From UHGV virus genome UHGV-0086716: DNA of 13,256 nucleotides; one strand, written 5' to 3'. Each line of letters starts with the position of its first letter. Position 1 is the first letter of the stretch. Shown piece after piece: positions 2,108-13,256 of this stretch. Source of the DNA: a virus. Position numbers and translations under genes: made by a program. The notes beneath the pieces were generated by a model. It ran no database searches and had not been told where the DNA came from. It was given only the letters and a program-made list of their open reading frames with translations.

Positions 2108-2524
2108 TCATGGTCTTTGTTGCCTGCGTGATTGCCTGTTGGCGGCCGAATGCACATAGCGGGCAATTGCCGCTTTTCGGTTAACGACGGCCAGCGTTCT
2201 TGCCAGCTCTTCGTTGAGTTTTCTGGTCTGTTTTTCGTGGTATGCCTGCATGATTTTTCCTACGGGAGTCAGTGGTTCAGGCTCTGATATGGCGCGACGA
2301 GGGCGCACGGCAACGATGAATGCGCTTCTGTCGGTGTTGATTCTTGCAGCCAGGATGTCGGTCATGACGGTATCTGTGTTGCGATCGTGGTTTGCGATCG
2401 TGATCTCCAGTTCGTCGCCTGGCTGTGGTCGAACACTGACGCCGCTCAGCATCAGTGCCGGAATGCGTCCACTCATGATGGCGCTGAAATCATGGCGCTG
2501 GAGTACGCAATGGAATCGTGTCAT
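2108..2524 (-). CDS. Hypothetical protein (138 aa), first gene after A
   Basis: ATG at 2524 overlaps the A stop (ATGA) and has GGAGGTG upstream inside the A 3' end. Segment ELEITIANHD...DILAARI weakly resembles the start of DinI (unverified). Confidence 0.6.
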   Translation of the reverse strand: MTRFHCVLQRHDFSAIMSGRIPALMLSGVSVRPQPGDELEITIANHDRNTDTVMTDILAARINTDRSAFIVAVRPRRAISEPEPLTPVGKIMQAYHEKQTRKLNEELARTLAVVNRKAAIARYVHSAANRQSRRQQRP

Positions 2525-5010
2525 GGGTTCACCTCCGGTTGATCTGCTGCCACCAGGCTTCGTGATTTCTCATCCCAGTGCACAATCCGCCCGTCAGGCA
2601 GGCGAACGCGTGCACCTCTGTGTACGGAAAGTGCTGCGCCACTGTGTGGCTCCTCGCCCGTCGTGCTCAGTGCCGACTTGATCACGGTGGTGGTGACGTC
2701 AGCCAGCGGCAATGCTGCACGCACATCTATGACGTCATCGGGCGTGGTGGGGCCGCCGGTTTTCACGGTTTTTGTGTCAGATGGCGCATCTTTCAGCTGC
2801 CTGGTGAGTTGTTTTCGCTCTGTGGGGGTCAGTGACCTTAACCACTCACCCAAATCACCTCCCGGGACGACCAGTTTTTGTTCTTTCCTGGTTTCCGGTG
2901 GTGGGGTTTTACCCTCTCCGGTGTCTGTTTTTTCATCATGGGGACAGTTATTGCCACGAGTCCAAGGGGCGACAAAGTCGCCCTGAAGGTCAAAACCATT
3001 TTCGTGGGCGCTGTCTTTCACTTCTGGTTTACGCCTTACCAGCTTCCACTTGTCCAGGTGGGTGCATACCCTGGAGGATTCCCCTTTGAGCGGTGACCAG
3101 ATGCCGTAAATCTGTGCGCGCTGTTCGCCGTAATCATTAGGCTCATCTGCGATGTCATAGGCGGTACGAATCAGATAATCTTTGCGCGGAACCAGCACGC
3201 CCCCCTGCTTCTCGGTGTAGGTGGCAAAACACCCGGCGTCAGCGGCAGCCAGTACCGCATCCATGGCATCGTCTTCCAGTCGTCCGGGGCCCTGTGGATT
3301 GCGGGCCATCTGGCAGGCAAGGCGGCGCAGCTCGCGCCATACCTGTCGGGACGGAATACCAAAGAACTGAAACTGTCGGACACGGTGCAGGCGTGCCCAG
3401 CCTATGGCGTGCTCCACGCTCTCAGCCATTGGTTTTCCTGATTCGTCGTCAATGCGTGGCTTACCTGTTTTCGGGTCGATGCCATCCACGGCGCGGCTGT
3501 CCAGGTTTTTCCCGATATAGGTGGCGATGTAGCTGGTTGGCGTGCCTTTTGAGCCGTCAATGTATTCCACCTTAAAGCGTGGTGTTATGTCGTCGCCCAG
3601 TTCCTGACGGTCTTCACGGATGGCGATGTCCCGGGCTGCGTTCTCTATAGCCTTTGCGTTATCCGGATGGGTGAAGACCAGCATGTGCCAGTGCACGGTG
3701 CCGTCATGGTGTGGCTCCACCGTGCGGACGCCATACCAGCGCAGGCCGTCGCGGTTCAGCTTTTTGCGGAGGGCGGCAAAGAACTTGTTGACCAGGTAAT
3801 CACTGGAATCGCGAATGGTGCTTCCGTCCCACTTAGGGTTCAGATAACCGCGCTCCGTCGTGGCGTGAAACCTTGATGGTGCGGTGATGGTCACAAATAA
3901 CACTGTGTCGCCACGGGCTTCTGCCAGCAGTTCCATACCCTTCGTGGTCGCCATCATCTCGGCCCTGCGATTGACCGGGTTACTGATGCCTGCGTAATAG
4001 ACGGATTCAAGGTCAATAGTGAAGCCGTCCTCGTTTTCCAGTTCGAAACGTTTCAGGAAGTCGCGGGTTTTCTCGCGTTGTGCGCGGAACTCGCCCAGTG
4101 CGTCCTTACTCAGGTAGGGCGATGTTTTTCTGGAAACCAGACCGGCAGCACGCAACTGTTCTTCCCGCCATTCGCGGCGCAACCGCCAGAGTTTGTGGTA
4201 CCACCAGTCTGCGCAGTTCAGGCGAAGGATGGCGCCTGGCAGTCGTTCAACATCCGGTTCCGTTCTCCGGTTCTTGTCTGTTCTCAGCGCTTCGTAATGC
4301 GGTGGTATGGTGTGCAGGTGTAGCGCCATGCGGGCCAGTACCGGATATGCCTTCAGCATTACATCCACTGTCATCTCACCATCGCTGGCCCCGAAACCGT
4401 CGCAAAGTTTTTCGAAGGTTCTGCTGAACAGTATGGCCGTCATGGCTGCCAGCATTCGTGTCCGGCGTTCATCGAGCTGCGGCAGGTAAAGCAGGTTATC
4501 CAGATTGTCGCGCCCGGCAAGGGAACGGTAAGCCGGAGTCAGCCAGCGGCTGTTAGTGCGCTCCAGTCGTTTGAATATTTCGCGCAGTGTTTCGCTCGCG
4601 TAGCGGTCTGCCTGCCAGTTTTCCTCCCCTTTACGGCGTTCTGACTCCTGTTTTTTGCGCAGGATACTGAGTTTTTTAATAAGCGGATCCCGCAGATAAG
4701 GCGGTAACAGGCGCAGCGTGTCGTAGGCTTCGCTTACTGCATCACGTGCCCGTGGGGCAATCGCGGCGATTACCCGGTCCCGTGCTTCCTGTGCGTCCAG
4801 GTGTTTGTTAATCAGGCGCCCAAGCCTGGTCGCGGCGAAGTCTGCATCACTCAGTTCGCCGTCGGGCATCGCGCGACGGAGTGCATCCACCCGGTAGGCG
4901 TCCAGCCATGAACGAAGGGCTGAGGTGGGGGCGGGTGTTTCCCTTCTCCTCTCCTCTTGCCCTATGGCATGGCGTGGTTGTTGCCAGTCCCGGATGTACT
5001 CAGCTGCCAC
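2521..5010 (-). CDS. A: Phage replication initiation protein, gene A family (rolling-circle endonuclease), 829 aa
   Basis: Size matches P2 gpA-type proteins. HUH-type motif (GTVHWHMLVF) and tandem-tyrosine region (YIATYIGKN). GTG start at 5010 with GGAG upstream, 6 nt after the upstream gene's stop. Confidence 0.88.
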   Translation of the reverse strand: MAAEYIRDWQQPRHAIGQEERRRETPAPTSALRSWLDAYRVDALRRAMPDGELSDADFAATRLGRLINKHLDAQEARDRVIAAIAPRARDAVSEAYDTLRLLPPYLRDPLIKKLSILRKKQESERRKGEENWQADRYASETLREIFKRLERTNSRWLTPAYRSLAGRDNLDNLLYLPQLDERRTRMLAAMTAILFSRTFEKLCDGFGASDGEMTVDVMLKAYPVLARMALHLHTIPPHYEALRTDKNRRTEPDVERLPGAILRLNCADWWYHKLWRLRREWREEQLRAAGLVSRKTSPYLSKDALGEFRAQREKTRDFLKRFELENEDGFTIDLESVYYAGISNPVNRRAEMMATTKGMELLAEARGDTVLFVTITAPSRFHATTERGYLNPKWDGSTIRDSSDYLVNKFFAALRKKLNRDGLRWYGVRTVEPHHDGTVHWHMLVFTHPDNAKAIENAARDIAIREDRQELGDDITPRFKVEYIDGSKGTPTSYIATYIGKNLDSRAVDGIDPKTGKPRIDDESGKPMAESVEHAIGWARLHRVRQFQFFGIPSRQVWRELRRLACQMARNPQGPGRLEDDAMDAVLAAADAGCFATYTEKQGGVLVPRKDYLIRTAYDIADEPNDYGEQRAQIYGIWSPLKGESSRVCTHLDKWKLVRRKPEVKDSAHENGFDLQGDFVAPWTRGNNCPHDEKTDTGEGKTPPPETRKEQKLVVPGGDLGEWLRSLTPTERKQLTRQLKDAPSDTKTVKTGGPTTPDDVIDVRAALPLADVTTTVIKSALSTTGEEPHSGAALSVHRGARVRLPDGRIVHWDEKSRSLVAADQPEVNP

Positions 5011-5016
5011 AGCGAT

Positions 5017-5391
5017 TTACTCCGCGATGCTGTTCAGTGCGCCGAGGCAAACAGCGGTCAGGCGCTGGATTTCCTGCGCGGTGGCTTCAGGGCTTGCCCG
5101 GCGGTGCGTAATGCGAAGACTGTCGGAAATGACTTCAATGAGCACCGACGACGGGCACTGACAGATGCAAACAACACTTGCAATGGTGTCTTCAATGCGG
5201 GAGAGCGTGTAATTGCCCTGGTTGCAGGCAAGCAGGTAGCGGCCGTCAATGACAGTCTGACCATCGGGAAGTTGTGGTGCTGTGGGTTGCAACTTCCTGT
5301 ACATCTCGAAGCGATGGGCAACGCGATCTCGTGTACCGGCGTCGCTTTCGGTCTGAATCAGGTAAGTTACAAAATCATCGATGAGAATCAT
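5017..5391 (-). CDS. Hypothetical protein (124 aa) immediately upstream of A
   Basis: ATG at 5391 with AGGAGG 9 nt upstream; protein-like composition; same strand as operon. Confidence 0.65.
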   Translation of the reverse strand: MILIDDFVTYLIQTESDAGTRDRVAHRFEMYRKLQPTAPQLPDGQTVIDGRYLLACNQGNYTLSRIEDTIASVVCICQCPSSVLIEVISDSLRITHRRASPEATAQEIQRLTAVCLGALNSIAE

Positions 5392-5463
5392 TGTGGCAAT
5401 CCTCCTGTTGCAGATGTGCGGAAGCCTCCCGCGTACAGATACGGGATAGCTTCCGGATGTGGT

Positions 5464-5685
5464 TTATCGGTGCTGGTTGATGAGGCTTTGCAGTTCTGCC
5501 AGATCTTCGGCGAGATAGCTGAAGACAGCAGCGCAGTAACGGTTTGATAGCGCGTGCGTGCGCTCATGCAGCATGTTGATGTGCATGATTTGCGCGACGC
5601 GTGTTGCGCGGAAAAGTCTGCGGTTGATTTCGCTGCGTATGTGAATACGCTCAGCGCGGGCGCGCTGTTGCTTGCGGTTTGCCAT
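5464..5685 (-). CDS. Small basic hypothetical protein (73 aa)
   Basis: ATG at 5685 with AGAGG upstream; arginine-rich N-terminus suggests nucleic-acid binding. Confidence 0.5.
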   Translation of the reverse strand: MANRKQQRARAERIHIRSEINRRLFRATRVAQIMHINMLHERTHALSNRYCAAVFSYLAEDLAELQSLINQHR

Positions 5686-5728
5686 GGTGTGGCCTCTGCG
5701 TTAGTAAGTTCTGAAAACTCACCATCCA

Positions 5729-5917
5729 GAGTTGAGAATCTCGGGGTGGCGAGACGTACGGGGTTCTCAACACCGGCTAACACAGGACCCGGCCCGACCG
5801 AAGTCGGCCCCGTACGCCCCGCCATAATTCTGACGCGAAAAAGACGTGGCGATACAGTACGCACAAAAAAACCGCTGGCGCGGCTGTGCGCTGTGTTAGT
5901 CAGCGGGTTGAGAATCC
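5729..5917. repeat. Structured non-coding island with GTTGAGAA(T/C)C repeats and nested perfect stems
   Basis: GTTGAGAATC at 5731-5740 and 5907-5916 (direct); inverse copy GTTCTCAAC at 5763-5771. Nested TCTCG/CGAGA (5739-5743 / 5750-5754). Perfect 9-bp stem CGTACGGGG / CCCCGTACG (5755-5763 / 5808-5816) enclosing CCGAC-cgaa-GTCGG (5794-5807). No ATG-initiated ORF with an RBS in this stretch. Confidence 0.45.
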
Positions 5918-5982
5918 CGGCACCCGTTTTATGAGGTGCAGCGGAAATGTAACCTGACTCAACGAGCGCTGGCAAGCGGTTT

Positions 5983-6010
5983 TTGTGTTGCGTGCTGAAG
6001 TATGTATAAT
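5983..6010 (+). promoter_or_regulatory. Sigma70-type promoter for the plus-strand embedded gene
   Basis: -35 TTGTGT (5983-5988), 16-bp spacer, -10 TATAAT (6005-6010) preceded by TG; about 60 nt upstream of the ATG at 6072. Confidence 0.5.
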
Positions 6011-6071
6011 CGCGGCGCAAAAATGGAATGCGCCGAAGGATAGCGGCGTTTATTAACAATGGAGGTTGTTT

Positions 6072-6539
6072 ATGCCTGTTGCTATGGAGCAAGCAGACAA
6101 GAAGATTTTTTTCCATCTGTGGTACAGCTACTGGCTGGAAGAGATGGTTTTCATACTCAGCAATAAAGCCGCTGCCGTGTTGCGCGCCGGGGCACTGATT
6201 GCTGCGGTATTCTCCTTTCTTCTCGTAGGTTTTCCCGTCCTGATGAGCCTTTGCGGGCTGGCGTTTTTTGTTTTTTCCTGGTTTTGCAGCAAGTGTGAAT
6301 TCGTCGCCGAACTGGCGTGCTGGCAGAAACAGAGCTACCTTCGTCTGATTACGCAAAGGGATTCCATGAGCACTGAACGCCTCATTGAGCGCATTCTGTA
6401 TCTGGAAGAAACGAACAGCGCATTCATGAAGGCGTTTGTCAGGCCTGCAAAAAACAAAGCGAGCGCATCTGTTGGTCTGTCTGCCAGCGAGCATTTGCGT
6501 TACTCCGAAAGGTTAATCTGCTGGTTGTGCGGCTTCTGA
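6072..6539 (+). CDS. Embedded plus-strand gene: predicted membrane protein (155 aa) with cytoplasmic C-terminal domain
   Basis: ATG at 6072 with GGAGG 6 nt upstream and own promoter. Two hydrophobic helices (AAAVLRAGALIAAVFSFLLVGFPVLM, SLCGLAFFVFSWF); codon usage looks enteric. Opposite strand to the surrounding operon; 3' end overlaps the DUF4406-like gene by 27 nt. Confidence 0.6.
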   Translation: MPVAMEQADKKIFFHLWYSYWLEEMVFILSNKAAAVLRAGALIAAVFSFLLVGFPVLMSLCGLAFFVFSWFCSKCEFVAELACWQKQSYLRLITQRDSMSTERLIERILYLEETNSAFMKAFVRPAKNKASASVGLSASEHLRYSERLICWLCGF

Positions 6540-7394: not shown

Positions 7395-8321
7395 TCAGCA
7401 GTCCGGACAGTAGCCACCGCCATGGCGACCGCATGGGTCGCACTGTTTCAGGGTGGCGATAACCTCCGGTGCGGGTTCGCTGGTTCTTGCGCCAACGCTT
7501 CTCGGTACCTGGATGCAGTTCATCCGGTATCCCCGATAAATGCGCCGTGTTTCCGGTGTGTCGGAATTGGAGATGGTGATGCTGGTCATGCCGCCCGTTT
7601 CCTGTGAAAGACGGTCAAGTGCCGCTCTCAGGCGAACGTGCTCGTGTTCATCGAATGGTTTTCCGTAGGCGGTGAAATTGTTCTTGCCACTGAATCGCAG
7701 GTAAGGGGGATCGCAGTACACGCAAAGCGTGTTGCCCATGCCGAACAGGTGACTGGCAGAGTTCAGCGTATCCTTAAAATCTGCGTGGATAAGCAGCGTT
7801 CGGGTGCTGTTTGCCTTGTCTGCAAATGCGCGGATTTCCCGCTCAGGGAAGTAGGGCTTGCGGTAGCAGCCGAAAGGCACGTTAAAGTCACCTTTTCCGT
7901 TCACGCGGAACAAACCGTTAAAGCTGTGTCGGTTCAGGTACAAAAACATGGCGGCCAGTCGCAGTTCACGGCGGTCGCTTATTCCCGTTCTGCTACTCAG
8001 GAAGGCATGATTCTCTGCGTTAAAGGTTTCGCGAATGATGAGATAGTCACCCCTGTTGTTGTGGTTCAGGAACAGGGTTTTCGCCTCGTCGATCAGGCTG
8101 TCGGTGTTGTCCCTGACTTGCCGGTAGAAATTGATCAGCGCACCATTGGAATCCCCCAGGATGTAGCGCTTGTAACTGGTGTTCATGAATACCGATGCGC
8201 CGCCCGCAAACGGCTCAACCAGGCAGTCTGCTTCTGGCAGATGCGCCTTCAGTGTGTTCATGATGCGGCTTTTTCCGCCCACCCATTTCAGCGGTGTGCC
8301 GGATAACAGCTCTTTGCTCAT
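7395..8321 (-). CDS. dam: DNA adenine methyltransferase (Dam-like), 308 aa, with short Cys-rich C-terminal tail
   Basis: KWVGGK, EPFAGGASVF (SAM-binding), FNVPFG, DPPY catalytic motif, NFTAY and ISNSDT all align with E. coli Dam as I recall it. AAGAGG RBS 7 nt upstream. Extra tail CDPCGRHGGGYCPDC. Confidence 0.9.
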   Translation of the reverse strand: MSKELLSGTPLKWVGGKSRIMNTLKAHLPEADCLVEPFAGGASVFMNTSYKRYILGDSNGALINFYRQVRDNTDSLIDEAKTLFLNHNNRGDYLIIRETFNAENHAFLSSRTGISDRRELRLAAMFLYLNRHSFNGLFRVNGKGDFNVPFGCYRKPYFPEREIRAFADKANSTRTLLIHADFKDTLNSASHLFGMGNTLCVYCDPPYLRFSGKNNFTAYGKPFDEHEHVRLRAALDRLSQETGGMTSITISNSDTPETRRIYRGYRMNCIQVPRSVGARTSEPAPEVIATLKQCDPCGRHGGGYCPDC

Positions 8322-8555: not shown

Positions 8556-9137
8556 TCATATGCTCAGGAATGGCGTTGTGAAGCGCTGCCAGATTTCTGA
8601 CACGACCTTTGCCTGGTAAATGGCATCGCCCAGTGCAGTGTGAGCAATGGTCTCTTTGCCTGATCGGCCTGGCATTCTCCAGCCGGAGGACTTAGCCATG
8701 TCGATAAGCGGACGCATACAGCGCTCGTTCCAGTAACACCACGGAATACTTTTTTCTCCGGCCGTGCGCTTTATGGCGGATCTCAGGATTGGGAAGTCAA
8801 AGTATGCACCCTTGCACCATACGGTCAGTGCCTTGCCCAGGGTTTCGTCTTGCATGTTGCGCGAAATGAACGCCAGAAATTCGGTTACTGCCGCAAGTTC
8901 TGTTCCCTCTGCGTTGAGCAGGCAGGCTCTGGCCTCCACGGATTGACCGGCCCACCATATGGCGGTTGATGCATTGACGGTTCCGCCGTTGCGCTCTGAA
9001 TCCACCGGGTCGATGTATTTCTCAAACTGCTTACCCAGCTTTCCGGTGAACGGGTCGAAAAACACCGCGCCGATCGCGAATATGACTGCGTCCGGTCCGG
9101 TGCCCAGTGTTTCGGTGTCAATCATGAGATGGTTCAT
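8556..9137 (-). CDS. DEDDh-type 3'-5' exonuclease (DnaQ-like fold), 193 aa
   Basis: Exo I motif MIDTETLG near the N-terminus and Exo III-like HTALGDAIY near the C-terminus. ATG at 9137 overlaps the upstream stop (ATGA); alternative start at 9125. Confidence 0.8.
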   Translation of the reverse strand: MNHLMIDTETLGTGPDAVIFAIGAVFFDPFTGKLGKQFEKYIDPVDSERNGGTVNASTAIWWAGQSVEARACLLNAEGTELAAVTEFLAFISRNMQDETLGKALTVWCKGAYFDFPILRSAIKRTAGEKSIPWCYWNERCMRPLIDMAKSSGWRMPGRSGKETIAHTALGDAIYQAKVVSEIWQRFTTPFLSI

Positions 9138-10571: not shown

Positions 10572-11096
10572 TTACTGGTTGCCTCCACTGTATTGGTGTT
10601 GCTCCAGTTTTGACTTTCTTCCTGTGTAAACCCGCTTTTCATTGATGGTCTGGCAGTCTTCTTTGTTTGCCGGGGAAAACTTTCTTTTCTGTCGGTCGTA
10701 CGTCCAGTAGCTTTTCCAGTTGTGCCATTCTGGCGGCTCGCATTCTGGTAATTCGTCAGCCAGCTTGTCCCACTCTCTGGCGTTAAACCACCATACGCCA
10801 TCCGAATTTTCGTCCTCAGGGTTTGAACGGGTCTTGTGTCCAGGCATCTGATTTCGCTGAAGCGCCACGCGCAATGCAGCTTTTGTCAACCCGATATAGG
10901 CCGCCCCTTTTTCAAGTGAGCAAAGTCCGGCTACCGGGCCATCCAGTCGCAAGGTTGCCCCTTTTTTGTAGGTGCGTTTTTTCTTTTCCTCTTGGTGTTC
11001 ATCGTCGTTTGCCGCACCAACGGATTCGGTGATGTCGCTACTTCCGTGGGGTTGCTGGGTGTCAGATAACTCTTTATCGGCAATGAAGTCCCGCAT
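10572..11096 (-). CDS. Cox-like early regulator/excisionase with N- and C-terminal extensions (174 aa)
   Basis: First gene of the leftward operon, divergent from the repressor gene; AAGAGG 7 nt upstream of ATG at 11096. Central segment AAYIGLTKAALRVALQRNQMP...GVWWFNAREWDKL resembles the P2 Cox HTH core as I recall it. Confidence 0.55.
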   Translation of the reverse strand: MRDFIADKELSDTQQPHGSSDITESVGAANDDEHQEEKKKRTYKKGATLRLDGPVAGLCSLEKGAAYIGLTKAALRVALQRNQMPGHKTRSNPEDENSDGVWWFNAREWDKLADELPECEPPEWHNWKSYWTYDRQKRKFSPANKEDCQTINEKRVYTGRKSKLEQHQYSGGNQ

Positions 11097-11155: not shown

Positions 11156-11179
11156 AAAGATACTCATACGAGTATCTTT
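11156..11179. promoter_or_regulatory. Perfect 10-4-10 palindrome in the divergent switch region (candidate operator)
   Basis: AAAGATACTC-atac-GAGTATCTTT, perfect dyad, 21 nt upstream of the repressor ATG and within the 103-bp interval between the divergent starts. Confidence 0.55.
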
Positions 11180-11199: not shown

Positions 11200-11541
11200 A
11201 TGGTTATCTTGTCAATAGACTATGCAAAAAAGCTACGTCAAATACGCAAGGCTGAAGGGCTAACGCAAAAGGAATTTGCGGATATTACGGGGTTGTCTTT
11301 AGCTGCCATAAGGAACTATGAATCAGGGCAAAAAAGCGCCAGAGCCAAAATTGTTGAGGCGGTTCTCCAGGTTGATCGATTTGAAAAATACATGATGTGG
11401 CTAATAAAAGATAAGACAATGCCTGTTGCCGGTCAGATAGCTCCGGCTCTCTCTCTTGATGGCTCCATTCAGTCGGAGGACGATCAGGATTCAATCCCAG
11501 CCACCCAAAAATCATCCCGATCAGGCCGCAATGCTGGCTAA
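11200..11541 (+). CDS. Immunity repressor, P2 C-like (HTH), 113 aa
   Basis: Motifs YESG, FEKYMMW and GQIAPAL match P2 repressor C as I recall it; HTH (LTQKEFADITGLSLAAIRNYESG). ATG at 11200 with GAGAGG upstream preferred over the track's TTG at 11179. Immediately upstream of int, as in P2. Confidence 0.8.
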   Translation: MVILSIDYAKKLRQIRKAEGLTQKEFADITGLSLAAIRNYESGQKSARAKIVEAVLQVDRFEKYMMWLIKDKTMPVAGQIAPALSLDGSIQSEDDQDSIPATQKSSRSGRNAG

Positions 11542-11610: not shown

Positions 11611-12603
11611 ATGTCGATTAAGCAACTCAAAGACGGGCGTTATAAGGTTGATGTAAGGCCGCAAGGGGCGGAAGGAAAGCGGATCCGTAAGATTTTTACC
11701 CTGAAGTCAAAGGCACAGGAGTTTGAAAGGTATGTTTTGCAGAATTTCCACGATAAACCGTGGCAGGCCAAGCCAGCTGATCAGCGTCGGTTATCCGAAC
11801 TGATAGATGCCTGGTGGGTGCTTGATGGTCGGAATCAGCCTTACGGGGATACTTACAGGGTCAGGCTGGAAAAAATAAACCGTGAGATGAGGGACCCCCG
11901 CGCCAGTGAGATGACGCGAAAGTTTATGCTCGGGTATCGTTCAGATAAATTACAGGCCGGATTAATGCCCTCCAGTGTTAATCGTGATTTGTGCGCCTTG
12001 TCTGCAATGTTTACCGCGCTGATTGATGCGGAGGTTTTCCATAATGAAAACCCGGTGCGTGGAATACGTAAGCTCAAGGTCAGGAATACAGAAATGGCCT
12101 TTCTTTCAGATGATGAGATTGATCGGCTCCTTGAGCGACTCGAGGGTGATGCGCGTCGCGTTGCTGTTCTGTGTCTTTCCACTGGCGCAAGGTGGGGGGA
12201 AGCGGCTGGTTTGCGTGGTGAGCATATCGTTGGTAACCGCGTAATGTTCTTTAACACAAAGAATGGAAAATCCCGCGCAGTTCCTGTTTCTGATACGGTG
12301 CTTTCGTTGATAAAAACCCGAAAAACTGGGCTATTGTACCAGGCTGATTACATCCGTTTTCGGGAGATCCTTCAGGAGGTGAAGCCGGACTTGCCGAAAG
12401 GGCAGGCCACCCATGTCATGCGTCATACATTCGCTACACATTTCATGATGAATGGCGGAAATATCGTTACGCTACAACGAATCCTGGGCCATGCCACGAT
12501 TCAACAAACGATGACGTATGCGCATTTTTCGCCGGACTTTTTACAGGATGCAATCAGCTTTAATCCGCTGGCTGAAAGTGTCCATAAACTGTCCATCGAT
12601 TAG
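11611..12603 (+). CDS. int: Tyrosine integrase, P2 Int-like (330 aa)
   Basis: GGAGGGG RBS 6 nt upstream. Catalytic-region pattern LCLSTGARWGEAA, HVMRHTFATHFMMNGGNIVTLQRILGH, TMTYAHF (R...HxxR...Y). Last phage gene before host DNA. Confidence 0.92.
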   Translation: MSIKQLKDGRYKVDVRPQGAEGKRIRKIFTLKSKAQEFERYVLQNFHDKPWQAKPADQRRLSELIDAWWVLDGRNQPYGDTYRVRLEKINREMRDPRASEMTRKFMLGYRSDKLQAGLMPSSVNRDLCALSAMFTALIDAEVFHNENPVRGIRKLKVRNTEMAFLSDDEIDRLLERLEGDARRVAVLCLSTGARWGEAAGLRGEHIVGNRVMFFNTKNGKSRAVPVSDTVLSLIKTRKTGLLYQADYIRFREILQEVKPDLPKGQATHVMRHTFATHFMMNGGNIVTLQRILGHATIQQTMTYAHFSPDFLQDAISFNPLAESVHKLSID

Positions 12604-12718
12604 TTGTAACTTGTGCTTATTTGCTCCCCTTGTTTTGATTTACTCATTGAAAAATAAGCAAATCATCAAGGGGAGTAAGTAGCGTTAAACCTCCTGCGGG
12701 CGCTTTTTTTGTCTCCCT
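12604..12718. other. Prophage/host junction containing an att-like core
   Basis: GAAAAATAAGCaaatcatcAAGGGGAG (12649-12675) resembles the P2 att core as I recall it. An upstream segment (12612-12630) carries reverse-complement copies of the same sub-motifs. T7 run at 12704-12710. Confidence 0.4.
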
Positions 12719-12732
12719 TTGATACCGAACAA
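12719..12732 (+). promoter_or_regulatory. FNR-type binding site upstream of dmsA
   Basis: TTGAT-accg-AACAA matches FNR consensus TTGAT-N4-ATCAA at 9 of 10 positions, 171 bp upstream of the dmsA ATG; dmsA is a known FNR-activated anaerobic gene. Confidence 0.5.
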
Positions 12733-12902
12733 TAATTACTCCTCACTTACACGTAATACTACTTTCGAGTGAAAATCTACCTATCTCTTTGATTTTCAAA
12801 TTATTCGATGTATACAAGCCTATATAGCGATCTGCTATAGAAATAATTACACAATACGGTTTGTTACTGGAATCAATCGTGAGCAAGCTTGAGTGAGCCA
12901 TT

Positions 12903-13256
12903 ATGAAAACGAAAATCCCTGATGCGGTATTGGCTGCTGAGGTGAGTCGCCGTGGTTTGGTAAAAACGACAGCGATCGGCGGCCTGGCAATGGCCAGCAG
13001 CGCATTAACATTACCTTTTAGTCGGATTGCGCACGCTGTCGATAGCGCCATTCCAACAAAATCAGACGAAAAGGTTATCTGGAGCGCCTGTACAGTTAAC
13101 TGTGGTAGTCGCTGCCCGCTACGTATGCACGTCGTGGACGGTGAAATCAAATATGTCGAAACGGACAATACCGGCGATGACAATTACGACGGCCTGCACC
13201 AGGTTCGCGCCTGTTTGCGTGGGCGTTCCATGCGTCGCCGTGTCTATAATCCGGAC
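12903..13256 (+). CDS. dmsA: Anaerobic DMSO reductase catalytic subunit (DmsA-type molybdoenzyme), N-terminal 118 codons, 3'-truncated by window edge
   Basis: Translation MKTKIPDAVLAAEVSRRGLVKTTAIGGLAMASSALTLPF... has a twin-arginine signal (SRRGLVK) and the N-terminal Cys cluster (CTVNCGSRC) of DmsA-family enzymes. No stop before the window end. Paralogues ynfE/ynfF cannot be strictly excluded. Confidence 0.85.
   Translation, partial: MKTKIPDAVLAAEVSRRGLVKTTAIGGLAMASSALTLPFSRIAHAVDSAIPTKSDEKVIWSACTVNCGSRCPLRMHVVDGEIKYVETDNTGDDNYDGLHQVRACLRGRSMRRRVYNPD

Follow-up and report, generated by a model that had tools for sequence, protein, structure and literature searches.

A P2-family prophage at the serS terminator and its junction with the dmsA promoter

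Where exactly does a prophage end whose integrase gene reads toward dmsA, and what does its integration do to the transcription of the host operon? The DNA analysed here (the window; 13,256 nt, UHGV-0086716) comprises the early region and the right end of a P2-family prophage, followed by the 5' part of host dmsA. The original prediction placed the prophage directly upstream of an intact dmsA promoter, with int oriented toward dmsA, its stop about 115 bp from the FNR site and about 300 bp from the dmsA start, and no tRNA at the junction. It proposed that integration could expose dmsA to read-through from phage promoters or separate it from upstream host signals. The geometry is borne out by our measurements. 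The int stop lies 116 bp from the FNR site (12719-12732) and 300 bp before the dmsA ATG at 12903, int (11611-12603) and dmsA are both on the plus strand, and ARAGORN finds no tRNA or tmRNA at the junction or anywhere else in the window, which eliminates a tRNA target. We conclude, with a probability of roughly 0.75, that the right end of the window is the attR of a prophage of about 33 kb, integrated in the serS terminator by its P2-family tyrosine integrase, and that dmsA control has been kept while the terminator between int and the dmsA promoter has been lost.

The prophage and its attachment site

The window carries the following genes:

1-708: portal gene, end part (Pfam profile match)
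2521-5010, minus strand: GPA replication endonuclease (Pfam Phage_GPA, E 4.5e-117)
7395-8321, minus strand: Dam-type methylase
8556-9137, minus strand: exonuclease
10572-11096, minus strand: Cox (PHROG 23196, E 9.8e-115)
~11200-11541, plus strand: C-type immunity repressor (HTH; Pfam HTH_3, E 1.2e-10), directly upstream of int on the same strand
11611-12603, plus strand: int, P2-family tyrosine integrase of 330 aa (Pfam Int_N and Phage_integrase), TAG stop at 12601-12603
12903-13256, plus strand: dmsA 5' part with the Tat signal peptide and first Cys cluster (translation, in agreement with the K-12 and RefSeq annotation)

The P2-family features of the window are thus GPA, the divergent arrangement of Cox and repressor, int downstream of the repressor, and a homologue of P2 Int. 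The integrase is 48.5% identical to Peduovirus P2 Int over 98% of the protein (tblastn) and 52-56% identical to those of other Peduoviridae, and its translation shows the motifs ARWGE, HVMRHTFATH, LGH and TYAHF. Cox scores 25.3 bits against Pfam Phage_Cox, just under the 27.5-bit cutoff. The start of the repressor (ATG 11200) was picked by reading, the mechanical open reading frame beginning at 11179; its homologues in related prophages are annotated as helix-turn-helix proteins or immunity repressors.

Two further observations concern the gene content of these prophages. In the early region an Rfam C4 antisense RNA match (5742-5829, minus strand, 77.8 bits) adjoins an isrK match (5865-5939, minus strand, 62.3 bits), both inside a mechanical open reading frame (5388-6494) whose residues 164-293 match PHROG transcriptional-regulator families. 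By analogy with P1 and Gifsy phages, the C4/isrK pair looks like an antirepressor-control module in a P2-family prophage. Just inside attL, beside serS, prophages at the dmsA site also have Hok/Gef-family toxin genes, one or two per prophage (12262-13124 and 2719-2859 of two extracted regions).

We aligned the window with the prophage-free serS-dmsA interval of K-12 MG1655 (NC_000913.3), the comparison that had been proposed for defining the att core. From 12693 to the dmsA ATG the window agrees with the host sequence, the single mismatch being at 12831. The alignment defines an identity core, CCTGCGGG (12693-12700, corresponding to NC_000913.3 940749-940756), which is common to attL, attR and attB, and it identifies the target as the intrinsic terminator of serS. 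The attB of K-12 reads ctAAAAAGCGCCTGCGGGCGCTTTTTTTg and the attR of the window gttAAACCTCCTGCGGGCGCTTTTTTTg. The window has no attL of its own, and we derived the window-type attL from genomes with a 100% identical attR arm. In three carriers of the window-type arm it reads AAAAAGCGCCTGCGGGTGGTTTT(A/G)G, and the serS-side junction of strain 48 is AAAAAGCGCCTGCGGGTGGTTTTAGtggg, the same as in two further window-type genomes. Strain 48, with an attR arm 100% identical to that of the window, contains the full prophage with both ends, spanning about 33 kb from serS to dmsA; window-type attL and attR arms co-occur in the same genomes about 33 kb apart. Since attB, attL and attR share only CCTGCGGG, strand exchange must fall within those 8 bp. 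Two apparent kinds of prophage-free allele, with matches starting from query position 388 or 394, differ only in BLAST extension; their attB sequences are the same.

The K-12 boundary, ctAAAAAGCGCC-TGCG-GGCGCTTTTTTTg, is the serS terminator itself, with the serS stop codon 28 bp upstream, and the core forms the loop and inner stem of its hairpin. The flanks of the core are inverted repeats, GCGCC/GGCGC in the host arms and CCTCC/GGTGG in the phage arms. The features around the junction are:

12578-12597, plus strand: candidate arm-type sites for Int within the final codons of its gene; GTGTCCAtaaacTGTCCAtc holds the GTCCA repeat twice, 11 bp apart (pattern scan, 12580-12584 and 12591-12595)
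12613-12683: long imperfect inverted repeat between the int stop and the att core (RNA hairpin of ~70 nt, ~-32 kcal/mol)
12678-12812, minus strand: full-length match to Rfam STnc130 (RF02084; putative sRNA of enterobacteria), 122.3 bits against a gathering score of 55
12687-12694: phage-derived left arm of the hybrid attR, AAACCTCC instead of host AAAGCGCC (from the alignments; the Rfam alignment marks both broken pairs)
12693-12700: att identity core
12699-12710, plus strand: host-derived right arm GGCGC and T7 tract of the serS terminator, identical to K-12
12719-12732, plus strand: FNR site, TTGATaccgAACAA (also given as TTGATACCGAACAA), base for base that of the K-12 dmsA promoter
12754-12767, plus strand: inferred -10 hexamer TAATAC (12754-12759) and transcription start (12767, dmsA P1)

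The terminator palindrome AAAGCGCC-TGCG-GGCGCTTT would supply inverted core-type sites, Int would exchange strands inside the core, and excision would restore AAAAAGCGCCTGCGGGCGCTTTTTTT. The paired GTCCA-N6-GTCCA repeats on both arms would act as arm-type sites as in P2. In both att variants described below, the far arm carries a matching GTCCA pair about 55 bp past the core (attL of strain 48 and of strain R10). P2 attP has the same repeat layout: GTGTCCACAtaGTGTCCACA closely follows the int stop and CTGTCCACAtaGCGTCCACA occupies the far arm, which makes the GTCCA pairs plausible arm-type Int sites by analogy. The long inverted repeat between int and the core folds with a z-score of -3.76 (0 of 200 shuffles fold as well) and is kept in four sequence variants, in which three pairs change on both sides. 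It could serve as a 3' stabiliser of the int mRNA, or as a bending or accessory-factor region of the P arm; the IHF consensus WATCARNNNNTTR has no match in 12500-12760.

Related integrases are found at other sites as well. In E. coli CFIAFB20180511 the integrase WP_032082982.1 is joined to a truncated topB (2486-2620 of the extracted locus), and the same protein adjoins dmsA in another strain. K-12 topB contains CCTGCtGGCGCTTTT (~3072-3091 of the extracted locus), which agrees with the major-type core described below at 13 of 14 positions, and judged from these sequences the topB junction looks like a secondary attachment site disrupting topoisomerase III. We also considered whether Yersinia and Serratia relatives (54-58% identical) with a serS linkage occupy the same site. 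This was rejected, as the one prophage inspected, that of Yersinia alsatica, lies upstream of pflA instead; some 40 bp separate the end of its integrase gene (57% identical) from the pflA start codon (3940-4030 of the extracted locus). The pflA target is a different intergenic site in the same chromosomal neighbourhood, serS-ycaD-pflA. Three further relatives with 54-57% identical integrases have serS close by.

Two att variants and the terminator between int and dmsA

We determined the frequency of the junction with a 957-bp probe made of the int 3' end, the junction and the dmsA 5' end, counting genomes in which at least 80% of it was covered, among complete RefSeq E. coli genomes. The int-dmsA junction is present in 345 of 5,426 genomes (~6%), ST131 EC958 included, and in all the others the match to the probe begins at the core. 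The int-dmsA arrangement also occurs in E. albertii. The prophage and its location are thus already present and annotated in hundreds of public genomes, and the event is an ordinary P2-type integration. The EC958 junction lies at the end of a region named prophage Phi1 (PMC4134206); the EC958 papers leave the insertion site unstated and mention neither serS nor dmsA, and our search of the literature on P2-like prophages at the dmsA/serS site found no description of the att site.

Over the 109 bp from the int stop to the T-tract these junctions fall into two main types, the type of the window (n = 13 genomes) and a major type (n = 287) that includes strain R10 and the ST131 reference EC958. Strain 48, 04-00955 and 2013C-3033 are among the window-type lysogens. 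R10 carries the same integrase protein accession as EC958, and the integrase family, length and position are as in the window; the int 3' end and junction DNA are ~92% identical between the window and R10. The major-type attR reads cgttAAAGCGCCTGCGGGCGCTTTTTTTg and its attL ctaaAAAGCGCCTGCGGGCGCTTTaagtag, so that the att core is the entire 20-bp hairpin AAAGCGCCTGCGGGCGCTTT. With a core of this extent, integration restores the full terminator in the interval from int to the dmsA promoter. The phage arms of the window type have diverged (CCTCC/GGTGG versus GCGCC/GGCGC), and the shared core is only 8 bp. Only three isolated-phage records hold integrases more than 80% identical, and inspection of one of them showed an extracted prophage with dmsA still included. 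In the absence of a free attP sequence, attP was reconstructed from attL and attR. The reconstructed window-type attP, AAACCTCC-TGCG-GGTGGTTTTAG, folds with -8.5 kcal/mol. Its outer change is a compensated flip from G-C to C-G and its middle position a U.U mismatch, so that attP still forms a hairpin.

Joining a phage arm to a host arm damages the hybrid hairpin at attR and weakens it at attL. The folding energy of the terminator hairpin is -16.3 kcal/mol in K-12, -15.1 in the major attR and -5.6 in the window attR, where CCTCC faces GGCGC, two of the five G-C pairs are lost and the fold is non-canonical (z = +1.9 versus shuffles). The window-type attL keeps four pairs followed by UUUUAG and folds with -11.3 kcal/mol. 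In an RNAalifold comparison of four variants the terminator helix is intact in three, and two pairs are broken in that of the window only. The U7 tract is kept in the window attR, but the stable G+C-rich hairpin before it that an intrinsic terminator has is absent. A terminator scan calls a site on both strands in the major-variant attR and none between int and dmsA in the window, although the same scan overlooks the K-12 serS terminator too, because A-T pairing there draws the T-tract into the stem. Given this unreliability we relied on the folding energies and not on the scan alone. The strong terminator between int and the dmsA promoter that the original prediction had weighed against its proposal is therefore real in the major att variant, where it is regenerated at attR in 287 genomes, and missing in the rare variant of the window, with two of five G-C pairs lost and no site called. 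In the lineage of the window, the one strong intrinsic terminator separating int from the dmsA promoter would have been lost on integration.

The serS terminator is shared. The STnc130 model lies antisense to the dmsA -10 hexamer and FNR site, and the att-core hairpin forms its end; other Rfam matches near the junction, to the Phe leader and to miRNAs, are far under their thresholds. The integration target is a bidirectional terminator common to serS and the Rfam family STnc130, a point absent from the earlier description of the locus.

Control of dmsA and transcription across the junction

On the dmsA side the host sequence is essentially untouched. From the core to the ATG (12693-12905) 212 of 213 bases are those of K-12, the insertion point lies 19 bp upstream of the unchanged dmsA promoter, and the ATG at 12903 is the annotated K-12 start. 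The single difference, at position 12831, is polymorphic, being T in the window, A in K-12 and G in strain 504239. It falls inside a TATA-rich repeat region of the dmsA leader (cgatGTATAcaagccTATATAgcgatctgcTATAG, 12803-12840), which may resemble a ModE-type operator. The FNR site agrees with 9 of the 10 positions of the consensus TTGAT-N4-ATCAA. In K-12 the dmsABC promoter is class II with FNR centred at -41.5 (genome-wide FNR study, PMC3688515). The start at 12767 was placed by inference, 41.5 bp from the FNR centre at 12725.5, and relative to this position the core occupies -74 to -67. The NarL-phosphate footprint at the dmsA promoter reportedly ends near -71 and hence inside the retained core. 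As far as these sequences go, nothing known to control dmsA is lost by integration. Since both the class II promoter with its FNR dependence and the entire leader remain of host origin, dmsA should keep its normal anaerobic control.

The consequences of the insertion must then be sought in transcripts that cross the junction. The lysogenic promoter of P2 drives repressor and int together; in P2-type phages this promoter is weak and int expression low. By the P2 paradigm, the repressor-int operon would be co-transcribed in lysogens and may leak some transcripts into dmsA. Over the repressor-int interval the scan finds only one weak intragenic terminator-like match, its total being within chance expectation. 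The broken hairpin at attR points structurally to weakened insulation between int and dmsA in the window variant, and read-through from the repressor-int operon into dmsA is structurally possible there. We nevertheless regard measurable read-through as rather unlikely and a physiologically important effect as highly improbable.

The best-surviving alternative, which we rate only a little short of an even chance, is that the insertion is transcriptionally neutral: the few repressor-int transcripts would be halted before dmsA by the long hairpin, by the residual stem with U7 or by Rho, and the prophage would just hold a safe intergenic site. The conserved hairpin of ~-32 kcal/mol directly follows int, but it is succeeded by 20 nt without a U-run and is therefore no classical terminator. 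The minimum-energy fold predicts a 5-bp outer helix of phage GUGCU (12613-12617) with host GGCGC (12699-12703), directly before the U7 tract. The untranslated stretch 12712-12790 is C-rich and G-poor (22 C, 6 G) and could load Rho. Any of the three, the conserved hairpin (12613-12683), the GUGCU/GGCGC helix or Rho, could stop int transcripts. The unchanged dmsA control sequence is consistent with neutrality, and the terminator rebuilt in most lysogens at the site suggests that insulation is the normal state. The clear break of the canonical hairpin in the window variant argues against neutrality there.

A second alternative, which seems to us unlikely, moves the consequence to the other users of the terminator. 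Formation of the serS 3' end would be weakened at attL, and STnc130, deprived of its terminator, would continue into the 3' region of int. The STnc130 match ends exactly in the core. Its 3' stem is perfect in K-12, where it is followed by UUUUU, and intact in the major variant, with the U-run cut to UUU. In the window two of its eight pairs are broken, the U-tract is UUU with phage sequence beyond, and the 3' hairpin folds with -4.2 kcal/mol versus -14.1 in K-12. The lowered stability of the window-type attL hairpin and its short U-run are in line with such an effect on serS, but transcripts reading through from serS would be stopped at a second terminator, a strong one about 90 bp further into the phage at attL. 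STnc130, moreover, is listed as a putative sRNA only (PMC3632133), and our literature search found no functional study of it. Its conservation may just reflect the dmsA promoter and serS terminator that it overlaps.

Taken further, the two att variants at one site would constitute a natural experiment, in which window-type lysogeny removes the bidirectional serS/STnc130 terminator, couples the repressor-int operon to anaerobic dmsABC and lets host antisense transcription run into int, while the common variant stays insulated. We consider this full scenario distinctly unlikely. Somewhat less probable still is the strong form of read-through in the original prediction, according to which phage promoters drive substantial FNR-independent dmsABC expression and alter the respiratory phenotype of the host. 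The co-orientation of int with dmsA at a distance of only 300 bp, the loss of the canonical terminator in the window variant and the near absence of terminator-like sites between repressor and int are all compatible with it. It is opposed by the low activity of the P2-type lysogenic promoter and the low expression of int, by the long hairpin, the U7-adjacent helix and possible Rho loading that stand in the way, and by the rarity of the variant (13 of 5,426 genomes), which does not suggest a selected benefit.

That integration cuts dmsA off from upstream host regulatory sites that it needs, the other half of the original prediction, is very improbable and does not withstand the alignment: host sequence upstream of -74 is indeed replaced by phage DNA, but in prophage-free E. 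coli only 54 bp, essentially the serS terminator, separate the serS stop from the FNR site, the DNA further upstream is only the left half of that terminator and the serS coding end, and all host sequence from -74 to the ATG, with the FNR site, the -10 hexamer, the leader and the reported NarL-phosphate footprint, is retained but for the polymorphic base.

Comparison with known systems

The preferred reading, an attR formed in the serS terminator with dmsA control kept and the intervening terminator lost, has close parallels. As in P2, the gene order is int-C / cox...A, int reads toward att, the attB is intergenic and not a tRNA gene, the identity between core and attB is short or imperfect, and two direct arm repeats, GTCCA(C)A, lie beside the int stop and two on the far arm. 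Unlike in P2, the attB is the serS terminator and not one of the P2 loc sites, the core is a terminator palindrome, and a conserved inverted repeat of 70 bp lies between the arm sites and the core. Phi1 of EC958 and the 287-genome type share with the window the site, the repressor-int-dmsA arrangement and the integrase family. In Phi1, however, the core is the full 20-bp hairpin and the attR terminator is complete, whereas in the window the core is 8 bp and the hairpin broken. The major variant also resembles temperate phages that target tRNA genes, in that its attP duplicates the whole target, here the terminator hairpin, and restores it on the attR side. It differs from them in that the target is an intrinsic terminator, and in the window variant the duplicated arms have diverged and the target is unfaithfully rebuilt. 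With respect to Rfam STnc130, the window has a full-length minus-strand match above the gathering score, but two pairs of the 3' stem are broken and the U-tract is replaced by phage sequence.

The one unusual and modestly interesting detail is the rare variant without a rebuilt terminator, which gives a natural pair of insulated and uninsulated junctions. For annotation, the value of the analysis lies in pinning down the precise att site of a prophage family that is very common in E. coli: ~6% of complete genomes carry it, and Phi1 of the pandemic ST131 clone is a member. The regulation of dmsA should be unaffected by integration. If the rare variant leaks into dmsABC or alters the 3' ends of serS or STnc130, it would be an example of att-core divergence changing the transcriptional cost of lysogeny, though it would introduce no new principle.
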